From contig NZ_JAQFIQ010000004.1 of the NCBI RefSeq assembly GCF_029504745.1, positions 57,219 to 89,218 on the forward strand: a stretch of DNA of 32,000 bases, read 5' to 3'. The position numbers and the translations under genes are program-made. Below the pieces are notes generated by a model. That model had not been told where the DNA came from and did not search any database. It saw only the letters and a list, made by a program, of their open reading frames with translations. Positions 3,883 to 31,873 of this stretch are shown here, one piece after another. Numbering within the stretch: the stretch's first letter is position 1; every line of letters starts with the position of its first letter. The DNA is from Breznakia sp. PF5-3 (GTDB taxonomy: Bacteria; Bacillota_I; Bacilli_A; Erysipelotrichales; Erysipelotrichaceae).

Positions 3883-4890
3883 ATGAAGATCTTATTATAT
3901 TTTGAAAATGAAAAGATGTTGAAAACTTCTGGGATAGGAAGAGCAATGAAACATCAGATGGAAGCATTGGAAAGTCAAGGAATAGAGTATACGACAGATC
4001 CAGATGCAACGGATTATGATATTCTACATGTGAATACATATATGATTAATAGTTCCCGTCTGATTGCAAAAGCAAAAAAAGAAGGTAAAAAAGTGGTTGT
4101 TCATGCACATAGTACGGAAGAAGATTTTCGTGATTCTTTTGTATTGAGTAATCAGTTGTCACCAATCTTTAAAAAAATCATAATGAATGTGTATTCGCAA
4201 GGAGACTATATATTGACACCAACTCCTTATTCAAAGAAAATATTAGAAAGTTATGGATTAACACAACCAATTGAAGATATTTCAAATGGTATTGATATTT
4301 GTCGTTTTGATCATGATGAAGAAAAAATAAAAGCATTCCGTAAATATTTTAGTTTAAAAGCGGATGATAAAGTGGTCATCAGTGTAGGTTTATATTTTGA
4401 ACGTAAAGGGATTTTAGACTTTGTTGAAGTGGCGAAACAACTTCCAGAATACAAATTTATATGGTTTGGTCATACACCACTGTATACAATTCCAAAACAT
4501 ATTCGCGATGTGATTCAAGAGGATCATCCAACGAATGTTTTATTTCCAGGATATGTAAAAGGGGCTGTTATTGAAGGTGCTTTCAGTGGCAGTGATGCTT
4601 TCTTTTTTCCTAGTAATGAAGAAACAGAGGGAATTGTTGTATTAGAAGCTTTAGCTTCACACCAAAATGTAATCGTTCGTGATATTCCGGTATTTGATCC
4701 TTGGTTAGTAGATAAAGTAAATTGCTACAAAGGGAAAGATAATGACGAATTCAAACAGTTAGTAGAGGGTGTTGTGGAAGCAACTTTACCGTCTACTAAA
4801 GAAGCGGGTCGAAAGACAGCAGAAGAACGTAGTATTAGTCAAATTGGAGTAAAATTAAAGGGAATTTATGAGAAGGTATTGAAGCAATAG
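3883..4890 (+). CDS. family 4 glycosyltransferase (GT-B; likely membrane glycolipid synthase)
   Basis: 335 aa. The N-terminus MKILLYFENEKMLKTSGIGRA is typical of the family, and the C-terminal half has the E-x7-E region (ETEGIVVLEALAS). First gene of a GT4 / flippase-like / GT4 cluster. Confidence 0.8.
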   Translation: MKILLYFENEKMLKTSGIGRAMKHQMEALESQGIEYTTDPDATDYDILHVNTYMINSSRLIAKAKKEGKKVVVHAHSTEEDFRDSFVLSNQLSPIFKKIIMNVYSQGDYILTPTPYSKKILESYGLTQPIEDISNGIDICRFDHDEEKIKAFRKYFSLKADDKVVISVGLYFERKGILDFVEVAKQLPEYKFIWFGHTPLYTIPKHIRDVIQEDHPTNVLFPGYVKGAVIEGAFSGSDAFFFPSNEETEGIVVLEALASHQNVIVRDIPVFDPWLVDKVNCYKGKDNDEFKQLVEGVVEATLPSTKEAGRKTAEERSISQIGVKLKGIYEKVLKQ

Positions 4891-4898
4891 AGGTTTCT

Positions 4899-5966
4899 AT
4901 GAAAAAGAAAAGTTATATAATTAATTTTTTATTGATAATTGGGCTTACCATTTTCGCATTGTGGTTTGCTTTAAAAGATAATTTTAGAGAAGTTATGCAT
5001 TTGCTTGGTAATATTAAATGGTATGCATTTATTTTTATTATTATCTATGGATTATCTTATAATTTAATCATCGGTTTGATTTATAAAATCTTAGGAAAAA
5101 CCTATAAAGCAGGCTATAAATACAAAGAGGGAGTACAAGTAGCTTTTGTAGGTGCTTTTTTTAGTGGTGTAACACCAAGTGCTACTGGTGGACAGTTTGC
5201 ACAGGCTTATATTATGAAGCAACAAGGAATTAAGATTAGTAATGGAGCTAGTATTCTATGGATAGATTTTATTATCTATCAAAGTGTAATGGTAGCGTAT
5301 AGTACTATTTTGATGATTTTAAAATTTTCTTATTATTATACAGAACATTCATCATTCTTTTTATTGGTTTTAATAGGATATGTTGTCAATAGTATGGTAA
5401 TTTTATTGTTATATACGATGGCAAAATTCCCTAAAATTTATAAGCGATTGAGTTCATGGGTTGTAAAATTATTAGCAAGATTGAAAGTTGTGAAAGATCC
5501 AGTTGCAACAATTACAAAATGGAATTTGCAGTTGGAAAGTTTTACCAATGAGATTCAAAGTATAAAACAGCATAAAGGAATGGTTGTAAAATGTATTCTT
5601 TTGAATGTAATTAGACTAACAGTGTTGTATTCATTGCCATTATTTATTGCATATACAATGGGCTTAAATGTTGGTGTTGATATGTTATTAGATATTATTA
5701 CAATGAGTGCGTTTGTAAATATTGCAAATGCGTTTTTCCCAGTACCTGGTGCAAGTGGGGGAACAGAGGCGGCTTTTATGCTTATCTTTTCAACTTTGTT
5801 TGCAACTGCAGAGGCAAATAGTATTATGATTCTTTGGCGGTTTTCAACCTATCATATGATTATCTTCATTGGTGGGATTACCTTTGTGTATTTAAAGCAA
5901 AAATATGATAAACGAAATAGTACTTTAATAAATGAGGAGGATTATTATGAGGATCGGAATCTTTAG
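4899..5966 (+). CDS. LPG-synthase-TM (MprF flippase-domain-like) integral membrane protein
   Basis: 355 aa and polytopic. Has a Gly-rich loop PVPGASGGTEAAF like the PGGxGxxE loop of the lysylphosphatidylglycerol synthase TM family. Sandwiched between two GT4 genes. Confidence 0.65.
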   Translation: MKKKSYIINFLLIIGLTIFALWFALKDNFREVMHLLGNIKWYAFIFIIIYGLSYNLIIGLIYKILGKTYKAGYKYKEGVQVAFVGAFFSGVTPSATGGQFAQAYIMKQQGIKISNGASILWIDFIIYQSVMVAYSTILMILKFSYYYTEHSSFFLLVLIGYVVNSMVILLLYTMAKFPKIYKRLSSWVVKLLARLKVVKDPVATITKWNLQLESFTNEIQSIKQHKGMVVKCILLNVIRLTVLYSLPLFIAYTMGLNVGVDMLLDIITMSAFVNIANAFFPVPGASGGTEAAFMLIFSTLFATAEANSIMILWRFSTYHMIIFIGGITFVYLKQKYDKRNSTLINEEDYYEDRNL

Positions 5967-7935
5967 TGATACCTACACACCAGATATAAACGGAGTGGTT
6001 TCATCTGTTGTAACATTACAAAACGCTTTGGAGGCTCATGGTCATGAAGTGTATATTATTACATCTCATAAAGGTTTTATACATTCTACTAGAGAAGGAA
6101 ATGTATTGCGAATGCCTGGGTTAGAGTTGAAATGGTTATATGGATATATTTTGAGCACACCATATCATTTTACGGTGAAAGAAGAAGTAGAAAAATTAAA
6201 CTTAGATGTGATTCATGTGCAAACAGAATTCGGGGTAGGTGTCTTTGCGAGAATCGTTGCTCGTAATTTACATATCCCTGTAGTTTATACATATCATACG
6301 ATGTATGAAGATTATACACATTATATCAATCGTTTTGATTTGGATAGTTTGGAAACTTTTTCTAAGAAGGTGTTTAGTTCTTTCACAAAGTTTCTTTGTG
6401 AATCGGTAACGGCGATTATTGCACCAAGTGAAAAAACGAAAGAAGCGCTTATTCGCTATGGGGTAAAAAGACCAATTCACATTATCCCAACAGGGTTGGA
6501 TTTGGAAGCTTTTAAACCTGAAAATGTGAAAAAGGATTTATGTATTTCAATTAAAGAGCAATTTGGAATTAGTGATTCTACGAAGTTAATAACGTATATA
6601 GGTAGAATTGCTCCAGAGAAGAGTATGGAGATTATCATTGATGGTTTTCAATATGTAAAAGATCCAAATGTTATGATGATGATTGTTGGTGGTGGACCAA
6701 CATTGGATGATTTACGTAAGCAAGCCAAGGATTTGGGTATTGCTGATCGAATTATTTTTACGGATAAGCAACCACGAGAAGATATGCCAGCTTATTATGC
6801 AATCAGTGATGCTTTTGTTTCTGCATCGTTAAGTGAGACACAAGGGATGACCTTTATTGAATCCTTAGCTGCAGGACTTCCTGTCTTTGCACGTAAAGAC
6901 GAAGTATTAGAAGAATTGGTTTTTGAAGGTGATACAGGTTTTTATTTTGCTACTCCTGAGGAGTTCGCCGAAAAAACGGATGCGTTCTTCGCTTTGTCGA
7001 AAGAACAACGTGTAGCGTTTAAACAGCGTTGTATGGAAGTAGTTAAAAAATATGATATTGAGAATTTTTATACTTCTGTATATCATGCTTATGAACAAGC
7101 GATTGAAGATTATGAAGAGTGCTTTCTTATTGAATCTATTAAAACAAGTGATGATTGCATGCGTTTATATTTGATCAACAAGAAATCTAATGAAGAAGTT
7201 ACGTTACTTGTATCTTTGGATGATTATTTAAAATATGAAATAAAAAAAGATGGTATTTTAGAATATAGTTTGTATGAAGTTTTAAAAGATAAGGAACGTT
7301 CTCTTACTGCTTATCGTGGAGCACTTAAGAAGTTACGTTCTAAAGACCGTACCCGTAAAGAAATGTACGACTTTTTGATTAATATGGAAAATCCTTTGGA
7401 TATTAAAACCATTAATGATCTTATTGATGTTTTAGAAGAAAAAGGATATATCAATGATGAAGCTTATACACTTATGCAACTTGAAAAAATGGATAAATCT
7501 TTGTATGGAAAGCAAAAGATGATTCGTCAATTGGTGAGTAAGGGAATCCCTTATGAAATGATTGAAGAACAACTAGAGCGTTTTGATGAATCACATGAAC
7601 ATACGAAGGCGTTTAAATTGGCTTTGGGATATCAAGATACAATTAAAAATAAATCAGTGAATGAAAAGAAAGAAATCATCAAAACAAAATTGATTAGTAA
7701 TGGCTTTAGTTCATCTTTAGCTTCTGAGATTGTTCTTGATTTAAATTTTGAAGATGATATCTTAAAAGAGAGTGTAGCATTGCAAAAAGTAATTGATAAA
7801 GCTTATCGTAATTATAGTCGCAAATACGATGGGAAAGCATTAAATGATAGAATTAAGCAATATGCATTACGTAAAGGATTTATGTATGATGATGTTGTAC
7901 ACGCAATAGAAATGAGGGAATTAAATGGAGAATAA
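5947..7935 (+). CDS. GT4 glycosyltransferase (to about nt 7110) fused in frame to a full-length RecX-like region (about 7120-7935)
   Basis: I prefer the ATG at 5947 (MRIGIFSD..., GAGGAGG 7 nt upstream) to the ORF-track start at 5932. The N-terminal ~390 aa are GT4 (GRIAPEKS, ETQGMTFIESLAAG). The C-terminal ~270 aa resemble Firmicute RecX (ALKKLRSKDRTRKEMYDFL, repeated helical units, EEKGYINDEAY). There is no stop codon and no in-frame start with an RBS at the junction. Confidence 0.8.
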   Translation: MRIGIFSDTYTPDINGVVSSVVTLQNALEAHGHEVYIITSHKGFIHSTREGNVLRMPGLELKWLYGYILSTPYHFTVKEEVEKLNLDVIHVQTEFGVGVFARIVARNLHIPVVYTYHTMYEDYTHYINRFDLDSLETFSKKVFSSFTKFLCESVTAIIAPSEKTKEALIRYGVKRPIHIIPTGLDLEAFKPENVKKDLCISIKEQFGISDSTKLITYIGRIAPEKSMEIIIDGFQYVKDPNVMMMIVGGGPTLDDLRKQAKDLGIADRIIFTDKQPREDMPAYYAISDAFVSASLSETQGMTFIESLAAGLPVFARKDEVLEELVFEGDTGFYFATPEEFAEKTDAFFALSKEQRVAFKQRCMEVVKKYDIENFYTSVYHAYEQAIEDYEECFLIESIKTSDDCMRLYLINKKSNEEVTLLVSLDDYLKYEIKKDGILEYSLYEVLKDKERSLTAYRGALKKLRSKDRTRKEMYDFLINMENPLDIKTINDLIDVLEEKGYINDEAYTLMQLEKMDKSLYGKQKMIRQLVSKGIPYEMIEEQLERFDESHEHTKAFKLALGYQDTIKNKSVNEKKEIIKTKLISNGFSSSLASEIVLDLNFEDDILKESVALQKVIDKAYRNYSRKYDGKALNDRIKQYALRKGFMYDDVVHAIEMRELNGE

Positions 7936-9040: not shown

Positions 9041-9340
9041 ATGAAGCTTATTCAAAAACATAAAAAAATGATTATTGCATGCTTGATCATATTAATTATT
9101 GCTGTTTTCGCGGGTAGTATCCTTATCTTTCAATTTGTTGCAAGCAATGTTGCTTACAGTAAAGAGCAGGCGCAGGATATTGTTCTTGAACAATTTCCTG
9201 GAAAAGTTATAGAAGCGGATGTTGAACACGAACTTTTAAATACATATTATGAATTTACGATATTAGATCAGCAATCTCAGGAAATCGAAGTTGTGGTGGA
9301 TGCGAAAAATGGATCCATTGTAGAAGTGGATTATGATTAA
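9041..9340 (+). CDS. PepSY domain membrane-anchored protein
   Basis: 99 aa: N-terminal TM helix plus one PepSY-like unit (...YYEFTILDQQSQEIEVVVDAKNGSIVEVDYD). Confidence 0.65.
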   Translation: MKLIQKHKKMIIACLIILIIAVFAGSILIFQFVASNVAYSKEQAQDIVLEQFPGKVIEADVEHELLNTYYEFTILDQQSQEIEVVVDAKNGSIVEVDYD

Positions 9341-9355
9341 AGGAGGAAGGGTGTC

Positions 9356-10015
9356 ATGGCAAAAATATTAATTGTTGAAGATGAAAAGAATATGCTTGAT
9401 TTATTGCGCTTGGAATTAACTCATGAACACTACGAGGTGGATTGTGCACAAACAGGAAGAGATGCATTGGATAAAGCACTTGTAAATGAATATGATTTAA
9501 TTTTGTTAGATTTAATGTTGCCACAGATGAATGGTGTTGAAGTATGCCGGCGAATTCGTTTAGAAAAAAGTACACCAATTATCATGTTAACAGCAAGAGA
9601 TGCCGTTATGGATAAAGTGAATGGATTGGCATCAGGAGCTGATGATTATCTTGCTAAACCCTTTGCAATGGAAGAATTGTTTGCTAGAATACATGCTTTA
9701 TTAAGACGCAGTACACAAACTTTATCAAATATTAATTATCGAGATTTAGTGTTACATATCGATGCTTTCCAAGTATGGAAAAAGGATCAAGAAATTTTAT
9801 TGACAGTAAAAGAGTTTCAACTTTTAAAACTATTTATGAAACATCCTAGAAAAGTATTTCATCGTGATGAGTTGATTGAAGAGATATGGGGATATGAAAA
9901 TGATGCGGAGACTAATGTTGTTGATGTATATATTCGCCATTTACGAAATAAGCTAGAAAGTGATAACGACACATATATTCATACGGTACGTGGAGTGGGG
10001 TATCGATTCGAATGA
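9356..10015 (+). CDS. OmpR-family response regulator
   Basis: 219 aa. Receiver domain (DLILLDLMLP, acceptor Asp context; K in LAKPF) plus a winged-helix output domain (VRGVGYRF). Confidence 0.93.
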   Translation: MAKILIVEDEKNMLDLLRLELTHEHYEVDCAQTGRDALDKALVNEYDLILLDLMLPQMNGVEVCRRIRLEKSTPIIMLTARDAVMDKVNGLASGADDYLAKPFAMEELFARIHALLRRSTQTLSNINYRDLVLHIDAFQVWKKDQEILLTVKEFQLLKLFMKHPRKVFHRDELIEEIWGYENDAETNVVDVYIRHLRNKLESDNDTYIHTVRGVGYRFE

Positions 10016-11076
10016 GACGTAAAAATATAAGATTTCGATTGACTCTTATCACTTCAATTATCATTTTAAGTTTTCTAGTTATTACAACGATTTTGTTTTC
10101 TCTTTTCCTTACATACTTTAGTCAAATCATTGAAAAAGTATACGGCATTGATGATGATATCTTAACTCCTTTTTACAGTATTATATTTATTGCTCTGGGG
10201 TTGTTAATCGTCTTTGCACTTATTGCTAGTATTTTAGGAGGAACCTTTGTTTCAGAACATTTTTTAACTACGGTTTCAAAATTTACAGATCAAATTAAGA
10301 AGATTCGGGAAGGTGGTCTTGATCAACGTTTGCCATTATCCAATAATGATGAATTAGATACTCTAGGATCGGAGTTTAATTCCTTGATGGATGATATAGA
10401 GGATTCTATGGAGAAACAAAATCAATTTGTATCTGATGCATCTCATGAATTAAAAACGCCATTGGCAATCTTGAATGGTAATTTGGATATGCTGAGCCGT
10501 TGGGGGAAAGAGGATCCAGAAATATTGGAAAATGCTCTGGAAGTTAGTAAGCTTGAAGTATCAAGAATGATTACATTAACAAATGAGTTATTACAGCTAA
10601 CACGGGGATTTGATGAAAGAGATGAGGTTGCCGCCCTTTCTATTAATCCAATTATTTCACGTATTATAAGTGAGTATCAAAAATTATATCCTGATTTTAA
10701 GATTGCATTTCATACAGAGAACCCAAAGGATATCTATCTTCGGGTTGAACATTTTGAACAAATTATTCTAATTTTATTAGATAATGCAATAAAGCACAGT
10801 CGTGAAGAAACAAAGTCTATAGAAATTCTTCATCAGGAAAACAGACTAGAAGTAAAAGACTATGGAGTAGGAATCAAAGAAGCTCACAGAGATAAAATAT
10901 TTGATCGTTTCTATCGTGTTGATGAAGCAAGAGAAAATAATCAAAATAGTTTTGGTTTAGGTTTATCAATTTTAAAGCGTATTAGTGAATGGTATCATTT
11001 TGATATTGCTATTGAAAGTAAAGAAGGACAGTATACAGTATTTATTATTACATTTAATGGAGGCAAAAATACATGA
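10012..11076 (+). CDS. sensor histidine kinase (2 TM, HAMP, HisKA, HATPase_c)
   Basis: 354 aa. H-box SHELKTPL, N-box LLDNAIKHS, and DRFYRVD / GLGLSI boxes. ATGA overlap with the response regulator gene. Confidence 0.92.
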   Translation: MRRKNIRFRLTLITSIIILSFLVITTILFSLFLTYFSQIIEKVYGIDDDILTPFYSIIFIALGLLIVFALIASILGGTFVSEHFLTTVSKFTDQIKKIREGGLDQRLPLSNNDELDTLGSEFNSLMDDIEDSMEKQNQFVSDASHELKTPLAILNGNLDMLSRWGKEDPEILENALEVSKLEVSRMITLTNELLQLTRGFDERDEVAALSINPIISRIISEYQKLYPDFKIAFHTENPKDIYLRVEHFEQIILILLDNAIKHSREETKSIEILHQENRLEVKDYGVGIKEAHRDKIFDRFYRVDEARENNQNSFGLGLSILKRISEWYHFDIAIESKEGQYTVFIITFNGGKNT

Positions 11077-11582
11077 AAAAGTATATTATCGGATGTTTGA
11101 TTTTAATGGTGGTAATTGTTGGTGGATGTAGAAATGATGATAGAAATCAAGCAAATAACCCAAAGGAAACAAGTAAAGCTGAAATCACTTTAGAAGAAGC
11201 GAAAGAAATTGCATTAAAAGAAGTAAATGGTGGTGTCGTGAAAGCAAATCAGGATTCTGATGATGGAATTACATATTATGAAATTGATATTGTGAAAGAT
11301 GGTATCAAGTATGATTTTGAAATTGATCTAAGTGGAACTATTATATCAAAAGAAATCGATGATGATTATGTGGATGCAACAAATAAAAATTATATTTCTC
11401 AAGCTAAGGCTGAAGAAATTGCTTTAGCCAAAGTAGGTGGCGGATCAGTAGAAAAAAGTAAACTAGAACATGATGATGGGATAGCATATTATGAAATTGA
11501 CATTGTGAAAGATAATATTCGTTATGATGTAGAAGTTTCTGCTACGGATGGAAATGTTATAAAATATGAAATCGATGACTAA
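11073..11582 (+). CDS. lipoprotein with two PepSY domains
   Basis: 169 aa. Lipobox-like VVIVGGC. Two internal repeats (...DDGITYYEIDIVKDGIKYDFEIDLSGTI... and ...DDGIAYYEIDIVKDNIRYDVEVSATDGNV...). ATGA overlap with the kinase gene. Confidence 0.75.
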   Translation: MKKYIIGCLILMVVIVGGCRNDDRNQANNPKETSKAEITLEEAKEIALKEVNGGVVKANQDSDDGITYYEIDIVKDGIKYDFEIDLSGTIISKEIDDDYVDATNKNYISQAKAEEIALAKVGGGSVEKSKLEHDDGIAYYEIDIVKDNIRYDVEVSATDGNVIKYEIDD

Positions 11583-16437: not shown

Positions 16438-16508
16438 GCTAACAAATTGACAAAACGTTAGTTTGAAATTGATACGAATATATGCTAACGTATAGATATG
16501 ATGTTAGC
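16438..16508. promoter_or_regulatory. two inverted-repeat pairs (GCTAAC-N13-GTTAGY), candidate AbiEi operator; TTGACA at 16447-16452
   Basis: Pair 1 is GCTAAC 16438-16443 / GTTAGT 16457-16462. Pair 2 is GCTAAC 16484-16489 / GTTAGC 16503-16508. Both have 13-nt spacers and lie directly upstream of the abiEi start. Confidence 0.5.
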
Positions 16509-16536
16509 TTTAAATTATCAGAAAGAAGGTGCTCTC

Positions 16537-17136
16537 ATGTCAAAAAAAGAAAATAGTCTAGATATAAATCAAGATTTTATTACATTTAGTCAAGTAAAGG
16601 AGGAGGGTGTTCCTTACTCAGTTATTCGGAAGAAGCTCGATTCTGGTGAGCTTGAAAAAGCTGGTAGAGGTATCTATCGAAAGCCTGATGTCTATGTTGA
16701 TGAGTCATATACACTGCAGTATCGCTATCCTAAGGGTGTATATTCACTTGAAACAGCGCTCTGGCTACATGGTTTGTCACTGACAGTTCCATTTGAACCA
16801 ACGATGAGTTTTCCTTATGGGACTAATACCAAGCTGATTAAGGAAGCAGGTATCAAACCTATAATTCTCCGCTCAAACTACGAGGAAGGAATAGTAGAGG
16901 TGAGAACACCTGGGGGACAGATAGTTCGAGTCTATGAGATTGAAAGAACTTTAACTGAGAGTCTTCGGGGCGTTTATAAAATGGATGTTCAAATAATTGC
17001 TCCGGCATTTAAGATGTATGCAAGCAAAGGGAAAATCAACTTTTCCAAGTTGCTTAAGTACGCTAAGATGTTTAAAGTAGAGAAAAAAGTTCAGTCGTAC
17101 TTGGAGGTGTTATTGGTGGAGGGCTTACATATGTAA
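16537..17136 (+). CDS. AbiEi-family (type IV TA) antitoxin / transcriptional regulator, orphan
   Basis: I prefer the ATG at 16537 (GAAGGTG RBS) to 16498. The N-terminal winged-helix has the family-typical ...GELEKAGRGIYRKPD motif, followed by the C-terminal AbiEi domain. No AbiEii nucleotidyltransferase ORF follows. Confidence 0.75.
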   Translation: MSKKENSLDINQDFITFSQVKEEGVPYSVIRKKLDSGELEKAGRGIYRKPDVYVDESYTLQYRYPKGVYSLETALWLHGLSLTVPFEPTMSFPYGTNTKLIKEAGIKPIILRSNYEEGIVEVRTPGGQIVRVYEIERTLTESLRGVYKMDVQIIAPAFKMYASKGKINFSKLLKYAKMFKVEKKVQSYLEVLLVEGLHM

Positions 17137-17387: not shown

Positions 17388-18578
17388 TTATTCTTCAGGT
17401 GTTGGCATAAGCTCGGTAGCTGATACCATTGCCACAATACAAGGTATTTCTCCAGGTGCAGCGTTGGTTTCAATATCATCTGGTATTTTGATTAAGACTA
17501 AGTATGAGGGATATACATAGTTATTGGTACTCCAATGACGACTATCATATAATTCAATACCCAATACATCTTTATAAGTTTCATCACTTAATGCATTTTG
17601 GATAATTGTCTGATAAGTCGTATCAGCGTTATCAAAATATGGAATCTGTATTGGACCACATGCGTAATCGTTTTTCAAGTTTTCTAGTGCTTGTTTAGTG
17701 CTGATCATTTTTTTGTCAGCTACTTTAGTTAAAGTGAAATTATTTGGCAATGATATACTAAGTTCCTTTCCGTTATCTCCCTCAAATAAATCATAGTCCA
17801 TTCGCTCAAATGATTTCATCATATCATTAACATCACTACGGGTTACATAGCCCTTTCCATTTGATTCTGGGGGAGTATCAAATGCACTTGTATAAGTATA
17901 TGGTTCATAGGGGTTACCAGTAAGCTCCTCCAAAATTTTAATTGCAAAATTATTAGCAGCTTCACTGTCTTCTATACCATATTCTTTTGGGTTTTTAAAC
18001 CAAATGGTTACATATATATGTGCATCGATAGAAAATGAAACACCATTAGGATAAGAATACGTAATGCTTGTTTTTACTCCCTGTTCAGTTGCATCATCTG
18101 TGATTGTTCTATCTTTAGAATCTAGATTTAGTATTTTTTCGATTGGTTCTGCATATTGTTTATCAAATTGTTCTTGTGAAACTATATCTGTGATACTTTG
18201 AATGATACGTCCATCTTGCGAATAGTCTAATCTAATATTTTCATAAACTGGTAAGGTGTCATACAATGCTATATCAGAGATTTCTAAATTGTTTGGATAT
18301 GCAGCATCCTTTTTTAAATAAATAAGTCCATCGTCTCCTTTGCGAGAATTAGATCCAGCATCCTTTGTTTGTGATATATCCTCTTTTTTAGGATTTGAAT
18401 TCATTTTTTGTAGTGTAAATACACTTATAATCATTAAACATACAACGATAGCTAGAGCCATAATAGGTTTCATGTTATTCTTTGTTACTTTTTCATTTGA
18501 TATTTCTTGAAGATGCTCTTTTAGTTTATTGTTTTCATTTATTTCATCTATATAGGTTTTATAATTTTTTTTGTTCAT
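17388..18578 (-). CDS. single-pass membrane protein with a large extracytoplasmic domain; putative anti-sigma factor
   Basis: 396 aa: ~35-aa cytoplasmic N-terminus, one TM (IMALAIVVCLMIISVFTL), ~335-aa external domain with no motif I recognise. ATGA overlap with the upstream ECF sigma gene. Confidence 0.5.
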   Translation of the reverse strand: MNKKNYKTYIDEINENNKLKEHLQEISNEKVTKNNMKPIMALAIVVCLMIISVFTLQKMNSNPKKEDISQTKDAGSNSRKGDDGLIYLKKDAAYPNNLEISDIALYDTLPVYENIRLDYSQDGRIIQSITDIVSQEQFDKQYAEPIEKILNLDSKDRTITDDATEQGVKTSITYSYPNGVSFSIDAHIYVTIWFKNPKEYGIEDSEAANNFAIKILEELTGNPYEPYTYTSAFDTPPESNGKGYVTRSDVNDMMKSFERMDYDLFEGDNGKELSISLPNNFTLTKVADKKMISTKQALENLKNDYACGPIQIPYFDNADTTYQTIIQNALSDETYKDVLGIELYDSRHWSTNNYVYPSYLVLIKIPDDIETNAAPGEIPCIVAMVSATELMPTPEE

Positions 18579-19036
18579 GATGATTCCTCCATTTGAGATT
18601 TAAGATATTTTAATGAGTTTTTTATATCACGAGAGACAGAACTAATGCTACGACCTGTCATATCTGATATTTCTTTATAGGTGTAACCTTCAATATAATA
18701 CAGATATACTATTGTGCGTTCTTCTTTTGAAAGTGCCATAAGTTCATCGTGTACTTGAATGCTTTCTTTGCTAATGATAAATTCATTAATATCAACATCG
18801 ACATGTTTCTTCTTGAAGAAACGGCGATGCAAGCTATTGCATTGATTTATAGTGACACGAACTAACCAATTTTTTAAGTGTTCTTCACTTTCAAAAGGCT
18901 TACTTTTATATAATTTGATATAGACTTCCTGTGCAATGTCTTGGGCATCATGAAAACTTGACGTGTTTGCCAAAGCAACATGAAAAACGAGATTGGAATA
19001 TTTATCTATATATTCTTCAAACTGTGAATGATCCAT
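18575..19036 (-). CDS. ECF-type (group 4) sigma-70 family RNA polymerase sigma factor
   Basis: 153 aa. Region 2 (DAQDIAQEVYIKLYK...WLVRVTINQC) and region 4 HTH (EERTIVYLYYIEGYTYKEISDMTGRSISSVSRDIKNSLKYLK). Confidence 0.88.
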   Translation of the reverse strand: MDHSQFEEYIDKYSNLVFHVALANTSSFHDAQDIAQEVYIKLYKSKPFESEEHLKNWLVRVTINQCNSLHRRFFKKKHVDVDINEFIISKESIQVHDELMALSKEERTIVYLYYIEGYTYKEISDMTGRSISSVSRDIKNSLKYLKSQMEESS

Positions 19037-27865: not shown

Positions 27866-28714
27866 ATGAAGCGCGCCTTTAAAGCAATAGGGATTATAGT
27901 AATTGTTGTTTTATTGATTGGTGGTTGTAGTTATGGTGTTTATAAATATAAGGTTTCACAAAGTGGAAGCTTAAATGTTTTAATTATTGGAATTGATTCA
28001 CGTGAGGGGTTAGATGGAGCACGTAGTGATTCTTTGATGGTTGCACATATTGATCAAGATCATAAAGAAATAAAGTTAATTTCAATTCCTAGAGATGCCT
28101 ATGTTCATATTCCTTCGGTAGATCGAAATGATAAAATCACACATGCATATGCATATGCAAAAAAAGAGGGAACGATTGAAACCATGGAGTATTTGTTTGA
28201 AACAGATTTTGAGTATTATATTGAAGTGGATTTTGAAAAAATGATAGCACTGGTAGATTCTATTGGTGGTATTGATTTAACTCCAACAGCAACCTTTTGC
28301 GAAATGGATGAGAAGGACAATGCACAAAGCTATTGTTTTGAAGAAGGACAGAGTGTTCATATGAATGGTGCTATGGCACTTTCATATTCACGTCATCGAA
28401 AGAGTGATAGTGACCTTTATCGTGCTGCTCGACAACAAGAAGTTATCAAAGCAATGGTTTCCAAAGTGAAGAGTTCGGGTGTTTTTGACATTTATAATTT
28501 TTATAAAGATGTTAAAGAAATAAGTGATACGAATTTGGATTTATGGGAGTTAATTGGATATGCTGATATGGCATTTAATGATTTTCGTTTAGAACAAGAA
28601 GTTGCAGAAGGTCAAGGTATGATGATGTGGGATGAGTATTATGGACAGGATCTTTACTTTTTCATCCTTGATGAAACTTGGGCGCAAGAAAAAATTGAAT
28701 ATTTTCAAAGATAG
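27866..28714 (+). CDS. LytR-CpsA-Psr (LCP) family cell-wall polymer transferase
   Basis: I prefer the ATG at 27866 (MKRAFKAIG...) to the TTG at 27839. N-terminal TM, then LNVLIIGIDSREG...ARSDSLMVAHID and SIPRD motifs. Confidence 0.88.
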   Translation: MKRAFKAIGIIVIVVLLIGGCSYGVYKYKVSQSGSLNVLIIGIDSREGLDGARSDSLMVAHIDQDHKEIKLISIPRDAYVHIPSVDRNDKITHAYAYAKKEGTIETMEYLFETDFEYYIEVDFEKMIALVDSIGGIDLTPTATFCEMDEKDNAQSYCFEEGQSVHMNGAMALSYSRHRKSDSDLYRAARQQEVIKAMVSKVKSSGVFDIYNFYKDVKEISDTNLDLWELIGYADMAFNDFRLEQEVAEGQGMMMWDEYYGQDLYFFILDETWAQEKIEYFQR

Positions 28715-28738
28715 GTGATTATTACCTATCTTTTTTAT
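28710..28738 (+). terminator. Rho-independent terminator
   Basis: GATAGGT (28710-28716) / ACCTATC (28724-28730), followed by TTTTTTATTTT. It includes the LCP stop codon. Confidence 0.8.
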
Positions 28739-28819
28739 TTTATAAAATCATCGTCTTGATATACTTAATTATAATGAAATTTGTTTATATTGGTGGTAAA
28801 ATAAATACAGGAGGGAATT

Positions 28820-29671
28820 ATGAGACAAAAACACAAGCAATTATTAGGTGTCTTAGTGGTTGTTTTATGTGCATTTCTACTGTTTCATCAGCCAATTGTG
28901 GCAGAGGTTGGAAACTCTGGTGGCTTTGGTGGAGGATCAAGCGGTGGAGGCGGAAGCTGGGGAGGCTCAGGAGGCTTTTTTGTTTTCGGAGGTGGTCCAG
29001 TAGCTATTATTATTTTTATTATTTTTATAGCTATTCGCTTATATGCTTCTTCTAAACAATCAGATAGAGGTACAAGTAGTCGCTCAGCATTTAATACTTC
29101 ATATATAAATGAAGATGCAGTGATTGCTAAAATCAAAGAAAATGATCCAAACTTTTCTGCTGAAAAGTTTAGAGGTTATGTTGGTGAAATTTACATTACA
29201 TTACAAGAAGCATGGGAAGCAAAGGATTGGAAAGCAGTAAGACCGTTTGAAAGCAATGCTTTGTTTAATATGCATAATCGACAATTACAAGAATATATTG
29301 ATAAGAATTGGACAAATCATTTAAATATGCAAGATGTAAGACAAGTTACATTAGCAAGCTATAAAATTGATGGTGATCAAGAAGTATTGAGCGTTCGTGT
29401 GAATGCATGTTGCATTGACTATACAACGGATGATAATACAGGTAAAGTAATTAGTGGGAATGAAAGACAGTTGAATGAACGTTCATATCGCTTTGAATTT
29501 ATTCGTAGCGTAGGTGTTAAGACCGATGTAGAGGTTGGTTTAAATCCAACCAATTGTCCAAATTGTGGGGCACCTACACAGGTTACATCTAGCGGAGAAT
29601 GTGAGTATTGTCATTCTGTAATTACCAATGGAAAGTATGGATGGGTGTTGAATAAGTATGGTGCGTGGTAA
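28820..29671 (+). CDS. signal peptide + Gly-rich exported linker + TM + Tim44-like domain + C4 zinc-ribbon protein (paralog 1)
   Basis: 283 aa with an AGGAGGG RBS. Hydrophobic N-terminus, GGFGGGSSGGGGSWGGSGG tract, TM (VAIIIFIIFIAI). Tim44-like core (FRGYVGEIYITLQEAWEAKDWKAVRPFES...). CPNCGAP...CEYC. Confidence 0.8.
   Translation: MRQKHKQLLGVLVVVLCAFLLFHQPIVAEVGNSGGFGGGSSGGGGSWGGSGGFFVFGGGPVAIIIFIIFIAIRLYASSKQSDRGTSSRSAFNTSYINEDAVIAKIKENDPNFSAEKFRGYVGEIYITLQEAWEAKDWKAVRPFESNALFNMHNRQLQEYIDKNWTNHLNMQDVRQVTLASYKIDGDQEVLSVRVNACCIDYTTDDNTGKVISGNERQLNERSYRFEFIRSVGVKTDVEVGLNPTNCPNCGAPTQVTSSGECEYCHSVITNGKYGWVLNKYGAW
28910..28996 (+). repeat. low-complexity GGN-codon tract (Gly-rich linker of paralog 1)
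   Basis: Encodes GNSGGFGGGSSGGGGSWGGSGGFFVFGGG. It generates spurious overlapping ORFs in other frames and on the other strand. Confidence 0.9.
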
Positions 29672-30575
29672 ACGAATAGTATTTGTTTTGCTAACAACCA
29701 TTTTATTCTTTTGCTCAATGAATGATATCAAAGCAGAAGTAGGAAACTCAGGAGGCTTTGATGGAGGATCTGATAGTGGAGGATCTGGTGGTTCATCAGG
29801 AGGATGGAGTTCTGGTGGTGGGTCTGATTTTAGTTCAGATGGAGGATCAGGATCTAGTAGCCCAATATCCATACTTATTTTTGCAGGGTTTTGGGGTGTT
29901 TCTATGTATGTGCAATATACTCGTAAGAAAAAGAATGACGAACCATACATTGTAAATGAAATAGATAACTCTGCGTTTAATAAGGATTATTACGATGAAG
30001 AAAGTATTGTTGAAGAGATTAGAAAAAGTGATCCTAATTTTGATTTATTAAAATTTAAAGATTATGTTGGCGATTTATATGTAATGTTACAGAAGTCATG
30101 GGAAGCAAAGGATTGGAAGCAAATTCGTTTGTTTGAAAGTGACACTTTGTTTAATATGCATAGAAGACAGTTACAGGAATATATAGACGAGCAAAAAACA
30201 AATTATTTAAAATATCAGACAGTTGATTCAGTGTGTATTACAGAATATCGAAAAGATACTTCATTGGAAATTTTGGTTGTTCGTTTGAATGCTTATTGTG
30301 TAGACTATATAACAAGTGATGTAACTGGAGCTTTATTAGATGGAGATAAGGAGAAGGTTAATGATAGGTCTTATTATTTAGAATTCATAAGATCAATAGG
30401 CGTACAGAGCGATCCAGAGATATCGCCAAAATTGACAAATTGTCCTAATTGTGGAGCTCCACTTCAAGTATCAGAAAGTGGAGAATGTGAATATTGTCGT
30501 TCTGTAATTACTAATGGAAAATATGGATGGGTATTAAATAAATATGGAGCTTGGAGAACAGCAAGGAGGAAATAA
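29658..30575 (+). CDS. signal peptide + Gly/Ser/Asp-rich exported linker + TM + Tim44-like domain + C4 zinc-ribbon protein (paralog 2)
   Basis: 305 aa, overlapping paralog 1 by 14 nt. Same architecture. The C-terminal 39 aa match paralog 1 at 35 positions. Confidence 0.8.
   Translation: MVRGKRIVFVLLTTILFFCSMNDIKAEVGNSGGFDGGSDSGGSGGSSGGWSSGGGSDFSSDGGSGSSSPISILIFAGFWGVSMYVQYTRKKKNDEPYIVNEIDNSAFNKDYYDEESIVEEIRKSDPNFDLLKFKDYVGDLYVMLQKSWEAKDWKQIRLFESDTLFNMHRRQLQEYIDEQKTNYLKYQTVDSVCITEYRKDTSLEILVVRLNAYCVDYITSDVTGALLDGDKEKVNDRSYYLEFIRSIGVQSDPEISPKLTNCPNCGAPLQVSESGECEYCRSVITNGKYGWVLNKYGAWRTARRK
29742..29861 (+). repeat. low-complexity GGN/AGY/GAY-codon tract (Gly/Ser/Asp linker of paralog 2)
   Basis: Encodes GNSGGFDGGSDSGGSGGSSGGWSSGGGSDFSSDGGSGSSS. 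Confidence 0.9.
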
Positions 30576-30578
30576 GAA

Positions 30579-31811
30579 ATGGGTTTAATTAGAGCAGCAG
30601 TGGCTTCTGCTAGAACAACACTAGCAGATCAATGGGTAGAGTATTTCTACTGTGATTCATTAAGCAATGATGAATTATTAAAAAAAGGTGAAAAAACGGT
30701 TAGCAGTGGTAGTAATACGAAAGGAAGTCCTAATATTATTACGGATGGAACTGGAATAGCAGTTAATGAAGGACAAGGAGTTCTTATTGTAGAAGATGGA
30801 AAAGTTGTAGAGTTTACGATGGAACCAGGACGTTTTACTTGGAATAGTTCATCAGAGCCTAGTTTGTTTAGCGGTGGTTTTCAAGGGTTAAAAGATTCTT
30901 TTAAAACATTTGGAAAACGTTTTACAATGGGTGGTACACCAGGGAAAGATCAACGTGTATACTTCATCAATTTAAAAGAGATTTTTGACAATAAATTTGG
31001 TACATCTACACCAATGCCTTACAAAGATCCAACATACCGAGGAATCTATATTCGTTATTTTGGACAGTATACAATTAAAATTGAAGATCCAATTCGTTTC
31101 TATACAAATGTAAGTGGAAATGTTGAACGTGTATATTTAAAAAGTGATTTGATGCAACAAGGGCATGCAGAATTTGTAAATGCATTAGATGTAGCGATTG
31201 CGAAATGTAGTGATGAAAACTATCAATACAATGATTTGCCTAAAAAACAAATAGAAATTGCTAAGTTTATGAACGATGCACTTGACGATGATTGGAAGGA
31301 AAGACGTGGAGTTGTAATTTCTTCGGTAGCAATTGAAAAAGTTACACCAGATGATGAATCAAGAGCACGTATTGAAAAGATTGATGATGCTATTATGATG
31401 TCAGATCAACGTGTTGCAGCAGGACGATTAGCAGAAGCGCAAGCAAATGCAATGGAAAAAGCAGCTGAAAATGATGCAGGTGCAATGCAAGGATTCTTAG
31501 GTATGGGCTTTGCTGCTCAAGCTGGTGGAATGAATACTGGAAATATGTTTGAAGGAACCAACCAACAAGAAAATAGTCCGTTCTTTGAAAACAATCCACA
31601 ACATACAGCATCTGATGCTGAACCGTTCATTGAACCAGCACAAGCACCAAGCAATGAGTGGAAGTGTAAAAAATGTGGACATATGAATAGTGGAAAATTC
31701 TGTAGTGAATGTGGTGATGCGAAACCAGATGATGGAAAATGGACATGTGAATGTGGACATGAGAACACAGGGAAATTCTGTGGAGATTGTGGAAAGAAAA
31801 AACCAGAGTAG
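30579..31811 (+). CDS. SPFH/Band-7-like protein (virion-core-protein-like, COG4260-type) with a C-terminal double zinc ribbon
   Basis: 410 aa. The AGGAGG RBS lies inside the end of paralog 2, with a 3-nt gap. The N-terminus MGLIRAAVASARTTLADQWVEYFYCD is typical of this SPFH subfamily. A Gly/Met/Ala/Gln-rich linker follows, then WKCKKCGHMNSGKFCSECG and WTCECGHENTGKFCGDCG. Confidence 0.75.
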   Translation: MGLIRAAVASARTTLADQWVEYFYCDSLSNDELLKKGEKTVSSGSNTKGSPNIITDGTGIAVNEGQGVLIVEDGKVVEFTMEPGRFTWNSSSEPSLFSGGFQGLKDSFKTFGKRFTMGGTPGKDQRVYFINLKEIFDNKFGTSTPMPYKDPTYRGIYIRYFGQYTIKIEDPIRFYTNVSGNVERVYLKSDLMQQGHAEFVNALDVAIAKCSDENYQYNDLPKKQIEIAKFMNDALDDDWKERRGVVISSVAIEKVTPDDESRARIEKIDDAIMMSDQRVAAGRLAEAQANAMEKAAENDAGAMQGFLGMGFAAQAGGMNTGNMFEGTNQQENSPFFENNPQHTASDAEPFIEPAQAPSNEWKCKKCGHMNSGKFCSECGDAKPDDGKWTCECGHENTGKFCGDCGKKKPE

Positions 31812-31827
31812 TAAAAAGAAGATAAAG

Positions 31828-31873
31828 GATATTATTGTAATCGATTTTGATTGATACAGTAGTATCTTTTTTT
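31828..31873 (+). terminator. Rho-independent terminator of the three-gene module
   Basis: GATATTATTG (31828-31837) pairs with CAGTAGTATC (31857-31866), including two G.U pairs, followed by TTTTTTT. Confidence 0.7.

Follow-up and report, generated by a model that had tools for sequence, protein, structure and literature searches.

SPFH proteins are, to our knowledge, widespread, and their bacterial roles are mostly unclear. The only studied member without an anchor of its own that we know of is YdjI (SamI) from Bacillus subtilis, which has been characterized in one organism with one set of partners. An ECF (sigma-W) dependent promoter is a feature of its operon, pspA-ydjGHI (samGHI). YdjI is a soluble protein whose membrane localization requires the membrane proteins YdjG and YdjH, and its role includes the recruitment of PspA (PMC8581546). 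The developmental phenotypes of SamGHI are PspA-independent (bioRxiv 10.64898/2026.02.06.704340).

The locus described here is from Breznakia sp. PF5-3 (GCF_029504745.1, contig NZ_JAQFIQ010000004.1) and lies in a window, the whole stretch of DNA that was analyzed, of 32,000 nt (positions 57,219-89,218, forward strand). It encodes two Tim44-like proteins and an SPFH protein. The Tim44-SPFH pairing is widespread yet unstudied in gut bacteria, and no published account of Tim44 paired with SPFH, Band_7_1 or COG4260 was found in the literature. By analogy with known systems, the operon probably builds a membrane-stress or membrane-organizing complex without the usual PspA partner.

Organization of the Operon

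The module consists of three co-directional ORFs on the + strand (28820-31811), which are arranged with their signals as follows.

28707..28743, + strand, intrinsic terminator of the upstream LCP-family gene, including the T-run (12-bp stem in the scan)
28774..28802, + strand, candidate sigma-70-type promoter (ATGAAA, 17-nt spacer, TAAAAT, extended -10 TG)
28810..28815, + strand, Shine-Dalgarno sequence of gene 1, GGAGGG, from sequence reading
28820..29671, + strand, gene 1 (M2475_000376), 283 aa
29658..30575, + strand, gene 2 (M2475_000377), 305 aa
30579..31811, + strand, gene 3, 410 aa
~31821..31873, + strand, intrinsic terminator at the 3' end of the module, a fold followed by U7

The first-pass annotation had described a three-gene unit with a 14-nt overlap between genes 1 and 2, a 3-nt gap between genes 2 and 3, and flanking terminators, and all of these details hold in the ORF reading and in folding. 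The upstream hairpin (28707-28733) has a dG of -12.8 kcal/mol and a z of -4.66 against shuffled sequences; this terminator shields the module from transcription entering from the LCP-family gene. The downstream terminator has a dG of -18.6 kcal/mol and a z of -4.83, with equally good folds in 0 of 200 shuffles, and the module is a stand-alone operon with terminators on both sides. The downstream terminator was overlooked by a simple hairpin scan and was recovered by folding. Ribosome binding sites of the unit's own had also been proposed: GGAGGG precedes gene 1 and AAGGAGG precedes gene 3, and gene 2 has a weak Shine-Dalgarno sequence.

The candidate promoter, a weak match and the only one found, agrees with the consensus at 9/12 positions; matches this good are no commoner here than in shuffles, and its other support comes solely from its place between the terminator and the ribosome binding site. 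No riboswitch or leader is assigned upstream of the module because the Rfam scan of the 32-kb window returned zero matches. The neighbors are housekeeping genes whose synteny is stable in related genomes; this context features no obvious stress regulator and gives no hint of function.

The Tim44-like Proteins

In mitochondria, the domain of Tim44 and mL45 attaches soluble machinery to the inner membrane, Tim44 serving as the Hsp70 tether at TIM23 and mL45 as a tether between the ribosome and the membrane. Both gene 1 (E = 8.6e-25, aa 100-232, 88 bits) and gene 2 (E = 1.3e-19, aa 117-250, 71 bits) match the Pfam family Tim44 (PF04280), for which the gathering cut-off is 29.6 bits. Gene 1 was modeled by AF2 at a pLDDT of 81.9, with an N-terminal helix (3-22), a disordered Gly-rich region (27-58), a TM helix (60-82) and a folded domain. 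[quoted passage not shown] The features of the two proteins are the following.

Gene 1, aa 1-28, signal peptide, with predicted cleavage between PIVA and EVGN
Gene 1, aa 29-59, Gly-rich tract, predicted to be exported
Gene 1, aa 60-82, TM segment
Gene 1, aa 98-235, Tim44-like NTF2-fold domain
Gene 1, aa 246-264 (29555..29611, + strand), Cys4 ribbon of Cys246, Cys249, Cys261 and Cys264 (CPNCGAP...CEYC)
Gene 2, 30441..30497, + strand, Cys4 ribbon of Cys262, Cys265, Cys277 and Cys280

The ribbon of gene 1 is inserted ahead of the last beta-strand (aa 276-282). Its four cysteines are invariant in 35/35 aligned homologs, and a Cys4 ribbon is found in all 86 of the 86 full-length Tim44-ribbon members encoded at the genome loci. 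The N-terminus that follows the predicted cleavage site is also conserved, as [DE]-V-G and then a tract rich in Gly, Ser, Asp and Trp. Genes 1 and 2 are paralogs with 52% identity over aa 60-283. Gene 2 shares the architecture of gene 1; its Gly/Ser tract is longer and acidic, and it ends in a basic tail. The shared signal peptide, Gly-rich tract, TM segment, Tim44-like domain and Cys4 ribbon that had been read from the DNA are borne out. The second Tim44 gene is a duplication specific to the Breznakia lineage.

The SPFH Protein and Its Relation to YdjI

Gene 3 matches Band_7_1 (PF13421, E = 4e-15) and Band_7 (E = 7.8e-6) in Pfam. Its Foldseek matches are stomatin, HflK/C, erlin, prohibitin and flotillin, with E values of 2e-8 to 1e-5, and the Tim44-like and SPFH folds suggested for the module are therefore supported by Pfam (PF04280 and PF13421) and by AlphaFold and Foldseek alike. 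There is no TM segment in gene 3, which is organized as follows.

N-terminus, conserved helix (MGLIRA...)
aa 52-280, SPFH domain
aa 259-297, helical extension
Between the helical extension and the ribbons, low-complexity Gly/Met-rich linker
31665..31790, + strand, tandem zinc ribbons, n = 2 (WKCKKCG..FCSECG and WTCECG..FCGDCG)

The predicted pair of terminal Cys4 ribbons was confirmed at the level of the cysteine positions, which are Cys363, Cys366, Cys375 and Cys378 in the first ribbon and Cys390, Cys392, Cys401 and Cys404 in the second. These columns are at least 90% conserved, and the homologs carry 1 to 4 ribbons.

A resemblance of gene 3 to YdjI had been noted, and the comparison of the gene 3 family with YdjI/SamI by hhalign agrees with it (probability 99.2%, E = 9e-20, ~20-25% identity), the alignment being collinear over the SPFH domain, the helix, the Gly/Met-rich linker and the ribbon. 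BLASTP of gene 3 against YdjI gives 20% identity and an E value of 0.001. On these alignments, gene 3 is a distant homolog of YdjI/SamI; its function may have diverged from that of YdjI because the identity is only ~20-25%.

The other proteins of the B. subtilis operon have no such counterpart. Gene 1 and YdjG align by BLASTP and hhalign in the ribbon knuckles (CPNCG) only, and gene 1 shows no similarity to YdjH beyond the CPNCG knuckle. Searches by phmmer with YdjG and YdjH matched nothing in the window and nothing in the 80 related loci, and TPM_phosphatase has no Pfam match in genes 1-3. In line with the first-pass annotation, the module is not a set of plain ydjGHI orthologs, and the analogy with SamGHI is architectural only, because the Tim44-like proteins are without detectable homology to YdjG or YdjH. 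Ravi et al. reportedly ascribe an 'NTF2-like' middle domain to YdjG. Homology of the Tim44-like domain to this middle domain is not supported, as hhalign aligned the ribbons only, both with the two family alignments (probability 70%, 77 columns) and with a single sequence. A YdjG profile searched against PDB sequences recovered generic ribbons only.

The Tim44-SPFH Pair Across Genomes

Relatives of the Tim44-ribbon proteins are encoded in at least 456 species genomes. The family comprises ~1,500 clusters at 50% identity, with many of the species coming from gut or rumen samples. Among the best 80 species loci, which cover Erysipelotrichaceae, Bacilli, Clostridia and Bacteroidales, 79 have the SPFH-ribbon gene immediately downstream and in the same orientation, as does the window. 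The pair also occurs in a RefSeq-annotated Monoglobus record and in Pfam-labeled metagenome contigs of independent origin. The exact genes 1 and 3 were not found in the contig index, and close relatives were used in their place. One high-GC contig retains the pair although the gene order is inverted and two Tim44-ribbon units are fused into one protein. The exceptions are one locus (L022), in which the Tim44 gene has no adjoining SPFH gene, and one related Band_7_1 clade that lacks a Tim44 neighbor.

Copies of the Tim44 gene number from 1 to 3 per locus, with three in close relatives of the Breznakia module, and tandem duplication arose repeatedly and independently. Single-chain [Tim44-ribbon]x2 proteins also exist. 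The expected synteny in relatives is found for the Tim44-SPFH adjacency (79/80) but not for the trio; the conserved core is two genes, Tim44-ribbon and then SPFH-ribbon. All-vs-all clustering of the neighboring genes found no third conserved partner, only lineage-specific genes, namely those for LOG/SLOG and Asp-protease in Bacteroidales and, in a few Bacilli MAGs, those for HAD, for a pilin-like protein and for unknown proteins. The module is neither rare nor peculiar to this Breznakia genome; its family is large and extends through the Bacillota and Bacteroidales of the gut.

Proposed Function

The module is proposed to be a dedicated membrane scaffold, a PspA-free analogue of SamGHI in which the Tim44-like proteins anchor an SPFH oligomer; resting on analogy, this proposal is given an even chance of being right. 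Genes 1 and 2 would be bitopic inner-membrane proteins, each exposing a short Gly-rich N-terminal tract to the outside, crossing the membrane once, and carrying the Tim44-like NTF2-fold domain with its embedded zinc ribbon at the cytoplasmic face. The Tim44-ribbon units, as a homo- or hetero-dimer, would most likely be the membrane receptor for gene 3, which, having no anchor of its own, would reach the cytoplasmic face of the membrane through them. Gene 3 would oligomerize once recruited; all structurally characterized SPFH proteins that we know of do so. The oligomer may then organize or restrain a membrane patch or its receptor. The outcome would be a membrane-homeostasis or envelope-stress module like SamG/SamH-SamI with a non-homologous anchor. 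The Tim44-SPFH contact, the oligomerization, the cytoplasmic ribbons and the stress-related role are the four parts of this model that we infer. The repeated tandem duplication of the Tim44 gene and the single-chain double proteins are hints of a multimer.

The module may instead work in connection with PspA, as YdjI does. This alternative is favored by the homology of gene 3 to YdjI, for which PspA recruitment is part of the known role (PMC8581546). However, PspA is found within 6-10 kb at none of ~90 loci searched by phmmer and in Pfam-labeled contexts, and the developmental phenotypes of SamGHI need no PspA (bioRxiv 10.64898/2026.02.06.704340); a PspA-linked role is rather unlikely. The absence of a pspA/liaH-type neighbor had been claimed from the DNA, and it is upheld: the PspA_IM30 domain is absent from the 32-kb window, and phmmer gives no PspA match within 8 kb on either side in the 80 loci. 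The accompanying description of the module as PspA-independent holds in that there is no pspA gene within about 8-10 kb, and is shown no further than that distance.

A more specific version of the scaffold proposal is doubtful, namely that the pair works autonomously and without PspA in gut anaerobes to sense the envelope. The exported N-terminus would be the sensor, and the cytoplasmic Tim44-like dimer would either signal to an SPFH cage or be restrained by it. If true, this would be the first time that a function is assigned to a Tim44-domain protein of bacteria other than Alphaproteobacteria, and it would hint at an earlier role of Tim44-type domains as receptors for SPFH or membrane scaffolds, before the mitochondrial import motor recruited them.

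It is improbable that the Tim44-like proteins act like their mitochondrial counterparts and tether a chaperone (DnaK) or the ribosome/insertase to the membrane at a site fenced by the SPFH protein, in the service of quality control or of the biogenesis of membrane proteins. Two tethers, Tim44 (Hsp70 at TIM23) and mL45 (ribosome to membrane), are indeed the nearest matches in structure, and other SPFH proteins partner quality-control machinery, such as HflK/C, one of the fold matches, with FtsH; however, a chaperone, insertase or protease gene is never conserved beside the pair, and the Hsp70-binding N-terminal half of Tim44 is missing. An anti-phage or abortive-infection membrane system is very improbable: defense systems often contain zinc-ribbon proteins and membrane proteins, the patchy spread across phyla suggests horizontal transfer, and gene 2 has one weak PADLOC match (PD-T4-9_A, E = 0.021), but this best match is not significant, there is no meaningful PHROG match, relatives of gene 1 number 0 in 50,697 phage records with only one in plasmids, and the neighbors are housekeeping genes in stable synteny. 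The defense or mobile-element reading was put aside because PADLOC, PHROGs and phage genomes yielded nothing useful.

Under the preferred reading of a dedicated scaffold, SPFH proteins of the YdjI kind would have, in the Tim44-like membrane protein, a second dedicated receptor that is unrelated to the first and far more widespread. The pairing gives bacterial Tim44-domain proteins a concrete candidate partner, and offers a minimal two-gene system for asking how soluble SPFH scaffolds reach membranes and whether they can work without PspA.

Comparison with Known Systems

Like NfeD-stomatin (YbbJ-QmcA), HflK/C-FtsH and FloT-NfeD2, the module encodes an SPFH scaffold together with a dedicated membrane partner. 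In those systems the SPFH protein has its own TM or hairpin anchor and the partner is NfeD or a protease, whereas gene 3 is predicted to be soluble and its partner is Tim44-like.

In COG, bacterial Tim44-domain proteins are labeled 'predicted lipid-binding transport protein'. Alphaproteobacterial TimA and Tim44_TimA (NF033778, NF033779) resemble genes 1 and 2 in being bacterial Tim44-domain membrane proteins; however, they come from other taxa and have another architecture, TimA lacks the ribbon, and the NCBIfam scores (42.3 versus a cut-off of 80 bits and 23.6 versus 200 bits) fall far short of both cut-offs. Genes 1 and 2 share with the mitochondrial Tim44 C-terminal domain and mL45/Mba1 an NTF2-like fold preceded by helices and, as we infer for the bacterial proteins, a location on the inner side of an energy-coupling membrane. 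The C-terminal region of Tim44 recruits it to cardiolipin-containing membranes and acts as a docking platform (PMC4749553), a precedent for the proposed receptor. Genes 1 and 2 differ in that they are predicted to be integral, with a signal peptide and a TM segment, while the mitochondrial proteins are peripheral; they feature the C-terminal-type domain only, without the Hsp70-binding N-terminal half; they carry the Cys4 ribbon ahead of the last strand; and their partner gene encodes an SPFH protein, not a translocase.

The module and the samGHI operon are both translationally compact. In both, genes for zinc-ribbon membrane proteins precede the SPFH gene, and the last gene encodes an SPFH protein of the Band_7_1 family that lacks a TM segment and has a Gly/Met-rich linker ahead of one or more C-terminal zinc ribbons. 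The membrane partners differ: YdjG consists of two N-terminal TFIIB-type ribbons, an uncharacterized domain and a C-terminal TM segment, and YdjH is a TPM-domain protein, whereas genes 1 and 2 each combine a signal peptide and TM segment with a Tim44-like domain and one ribbon.

Organisation of the module and its surroundings

The module comprises three ORFs on the + strand, which the first-pass annotation had placed exactly. All three products match proteins of Breznakia sp. PF5-3 (Erysipelotrichaceae) at 100% identity.

28707-28733: upstream terminator, hairpin and U-run (dG -12.8 kcal/mol, z = -4.7)
28820-29671, + strand: gene 1, ORF of 283 aa, locus tag M2475_000376
28892-28915: A-[DE]-V-G motif (A[DE]VGN in the alignment) in gene 1, aa 25-32
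29658-30575, + strand: gene 2, ORF of 305 aa, locus tag M2475_000377
30579-31811, + strand: gene 3, ORF of 410 aa
about 31821-31873: downstream terminator, hairpin and U-run (dG -18.6 kcal/mol, z = -4.8)

Genes 1 and 2 overlap by 14 nt, genes 2 and 3 are separated by 3 nt, and strong Shine-Dalgarno sequences precede genes 1 and 3. The bracketing of the module by terminators was borne out, as both hairpins with their U-runs fold stably, and none of 200 shuffles was as stable as the downstream hairpin. A candidate sigma-70-like promoter, with a weak consensus match only, lies between the upstream terminator and the gene 1 RBS.

An LCP-family protein gene lies directly upstream of the module, and the window neighbours are housekeeping genes (PTS components, a BglG-type antiterminator, a PP-loop ATPase, NagB, a Cof-type HAD hydrolase and thioredoxin). 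A sister contig with synteny identical to the window, on which the SPFH gene is preceded by three Tim44 genes, extends past the window end into DUF6198 and an Mga-like regulator with a PTS/glycosidase cluster; a stretch of 10 kb to each side showed no PspA. The - strand segment at 17388-19036, some 10 kb upstream of the module, holds an ECF-type sigma factor (Sigma70_r2/r4) and, after it, an ORF of 396 aa that has no Pfam match and could encode an anti-sigma factor. In B. subtilis, the ydj operon is under ECF (sigma-W) control. The window also features a compact cluster of a small PepSY protein, an OmpR-type response regulator, a HAMP histidine kinase and a double-PepSY protein (9041-11582), and a cluster of a GT4 glycosyltransferase, an LPG_synthase_TM protein and a second GT4 glycosyltransferase (3883-7935), the last of which (667 aa) is an unusual fusion with a RecX_HTH3-like C-terminal segment. 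An ORF at 16498-17136 has a weak N-terminal match to AbiEi_4 (antitoxin/transcriptional regulator), and no AbiEii partner was seen among the scanned window ORFs of at least 90 aa.

The Tim44-ribbon proteins

Genes 1 and 2 share 52% identity over the part that runs from the TM helix to the C-terminus, and both match Tim44 (PF04280) in Pfam (8.6e-25 and 1.3e-19, respectively). The AlphaFold2 model of gene 1 (input alignment of 35 sequences; pLDDT 81.9) features a hydrophobic N-terminal helix (aa 3-22), a disordered Gly-rich stretch (aa 27-58), a TM helix (aa 60-82) and an alpha+beta domain beyond it. The top Foldseek matches of this model in the PDB are the yeast and human Tim44 C-terminal domains and mitoribosomal mL45 (E 3e-7 to 1e-5), which, together with the Pfam matches, upholds the Tim44-like fold first assigned from the sequence alone. 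NCBIfam TimA/Tim44-adaptor models scored far under their cut-offs. Because the final beta-strand comes after the Cys4 ribbon in the DSSP string of the model, the ribbon of gene 1 appears to be inserted within the fold.

All 86 full-length family members from the genome loci carry the C-terminal Cys4 ribbon, and about 85 of the 86, from both Bacillota and Bacteroidales, carry A-[DE]-V-G directly after a signal-peptide-like segment. The site has AxA or VxA at -3/-1, and beyond it come a low-complexity tract rich in Gly/Ser/Asp/Trp and a single TM helix. In these members the nearly invariant motif falls exactly at the predicted signal-peptidase site, so the mature protein would begin with the conserved [DE]VG and continue into the Gly/Ser/Asp/Trp-rich tract. 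A-[DE]-V-G is not known to be a processing or sorting motif. The TM helix is trailed by basic residues, and by the positive-inside rule the Tim44-like domain and ribbon should therefore be cytoplasmic.

The SPFH-ribbon protein

Gene 3 matches Band_7_1 (4e-15) as well as Band_7 in Pfam, and its model (pLDDT 72.5) retrieved stomatin, HflK/C, erlin, prohibitin and flotillin in Foldseek (E from 2e-8). These matches and two WxCxCG...FCxxCG ribbons in the sequence agree with the SPFH fold and double zinc ribbon proposed earlier. The protein also features a conserved N-terminal helix, in which M1, G2 and L3 are invariant, a helical extension and a Gly/Met-rich linker; no TM segment was found in gene 3.

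Conservation of the gene pair

Scanning a genome collection with the gene-1 family brought up relatives in at least 456 species genomes, and 1,528 clusters were obtained at E <= 1e-30 when 1.84 billion representatives were searched with a profile. The best 80 of the at least 456, for the most part MAGs from gut or rumen, belong to Erysipelotrichaceae, other Bacilli, Clostridia and Bacteroidales. ORFs were called around these 80 loci and searched with profiles from both family alignments. An SPFH-ribbon gene lies directly downstream on the same strand in 76, and in three more it is cut by the contig end and was detected by tblastn; the sole exception is L022, with a radical-SAM gene after the Tim44 gene. 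When all neighbouring ORFs were clustered all-vs-all, no third gene proved to be conserved beyond single lineages. The conserved unit is the Tim44-ribbon/SPFH-ribbon gene pair. Of the three-gene unit described in the first-pass annotation, the synteny of the two gene types thus holds (79 of the best 80 loci); the fixed trio does not, since a locus carries one to three Tim44-ribbon copies.

The pair is also present in independent Pfam-labelled contigs (rumen Bacteroidales-like, Lachnospirales, Oscillospiraceae and other contexts) and in a RefSeq-annotated Monoglobus record. In the high-GC contig L095 the order is inverted, and a Band_7_1 gene with a double ribbon lies 8 nt upstream of a gene for a fused double Tim44-ribbon protein. 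The pairing is kept across phyla, gene order and fusion state, which is strong evidence, drawn from gene context, that the Tim44-ribbon and SPFH-ribbon proteins function together.

Some loci have further associations. One, which is lineage-specific, occurs in 21-22 Bacteroidales loci, where a LOG/SLOG (Lysine_decarbox/LDcluster4) gene and a gene for a small retropepsin-like aspartyl protease come after the pair on the same strand (e.g. L025:6266-7422, L057:7122-7976, L061:3573-4055). In an Oscillospiraceae MAG (L089:10001-14866) a CBM9_2-annotated gene and two Band_7 (HflK/C-like) genes follow the Tim44/Band_7_1 pair, forming a three-SPFH cluster. No Tim44 gene neighbours the Band_7_1 gene in a related clade that has four ribbons and an 'RVVDRN...' insertion (L091:416-2170); the gene directly upstream encodes a multi-TM protein of 98 aa that has no Pfam match and may represent a different type of anchor.

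Copy number of the Tim44-ribbon genes

In a rough NJ tree the Breznakia gene-1-type and gene-2-type copies are sister clades, apart from independent duplications in Clostridia. In a close relative that shares the flanking synteny (L087:10001-13904 and L088), three Tim44-ribbon genes stand in tandem ahead of the SPFH gene, versus two in the window, so copy number is shifting over short evolutionary times. A shorter, divergent extra paralog (235-258 aa) with a plain N-terminal TM helix occurs in several loci of Clostridia and Bacilli, where it separates the full-length Tim44 gene(s) from the SPFH gene:

L027:9619-10377, short third paralog
L033:8878-9642, short third paralog
L035:2719-3495, short third paralog
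L036:2885-3649, short third paralog
L050:2731-3444, short third paralog
L055:8578-9336, short third paralog
L060:6115-6834, short third paralog
L079:8908-9615, short third paralog

These proteins lack the signal peptide and Gly tract and retain a CPNCG...C.YC ribbon; one region is matched only weakly by the gene-1 (Tim44-ribbon) family profile and is below Pfam detection. Two complete units of Tim44-like domain and Cys4 ribbon occur in the single polypeptides P0362, P0407, P0434 and P0493 and at L095:1244-2926. The recurrent duplication and fusion suggests that the working unit has at least two Tim44-ribbon protomers.

Proposed function and comparison with YdjGHI

In the B. subtilis-type pspA-ydjGHI locus used as reference (L006; its YdjG shares 99% identity with B. 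subtilis proteins), Pfam assigns two TFIIB-type ribbons only to YdjG, a TPM domain to YdjH, and Band_7_1 (8e-43) and a ribbon to YdjI. BLASTP aligned gene 3 with YdjI at 20% identity (E = 0.001), and the gene-3 family profile matched YdjI with 99.2% probability over the full length, through the SPFH domain, helix, Gly/Met-rich linker and ribbon. The two are distant homologs with a common architecture. Gene 1 could be aligned with YdjG or YdjH at the ribbon knuckles only, also in family-versus-family hhalign.

The absence of an adjacent pspA was corroborated: no PspA_IM30 domain is present in the 32-kb window, and phmmer with PspA, YdjG and YdjH, which has limited sensitivity for divergent PspA, found nothing within 8 kb either side in the 80 loci. 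PspA was likewise not found in six Pfam-labelled contexts. Since gene 1 aligns to YdjG/YdjH at the ribbon only and no PspA was found nearby, the genes are not plain orthologs of ydjGHI next to pspA.

YdjI is soluble and requires YdjG and YdjH for membrane localisation (PMC8581546). SamGHI, the same proteins, have PspA-independent functions, and SamI puts a brake on the membrane complex formed by SamGH (bioRxiv 10.64898/2026.02.06.704340). The C-terminal region of Tim44 is a membrane-recruitment and docking platform (PMC4749553). By analogy with these three points, the strict pairing and the lack of a TM helix in gene 3 best support a model in which the Tim44-ribbon proteins would be membrane receptors that anchor the SPFH protein. 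Once recruited, the SPFH protein would oligomerise on the cytoplasmic face and could organise or regulate a membrane patch or the Tim44-ribbon receptor itself.

Dependence of the module on a PspA encoded elsewhere ranks lower; the searches for PspA covered the surroundings of the pair, and the SamGHI work describes functions that do not need it. A Tim44/mL45-like tether for a chaperone or ribosome, which would draw on the structural matches of gene 1, also ranks below the receptor model. Searches against PADLOC, PHROGs and phage genomes speak against a role in phage defence.

Our literature search found no paper tying Tim44-like proteins to SPFH, Band_7_1 or COG4260, and public annotations read only 'TIM44-like domain-containing protein' and 'SPFH domain-containing protein'. 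YdjG has been described as ribbons, an NTF2-like domain and a TM helix (Ravi et al., PMC11237479); if it carries an NTF2-like domain, the Tim44-ribbon and YdjG anchors may be analogous in architecture. B. subtilis already provides a known case of an anchor-less Band_7_1 SPFH protein that has dedicated membrane partners; what is new is the Tim44-ribbon type of partner, the PspA-free organisation and how broadly the pair is distributed.
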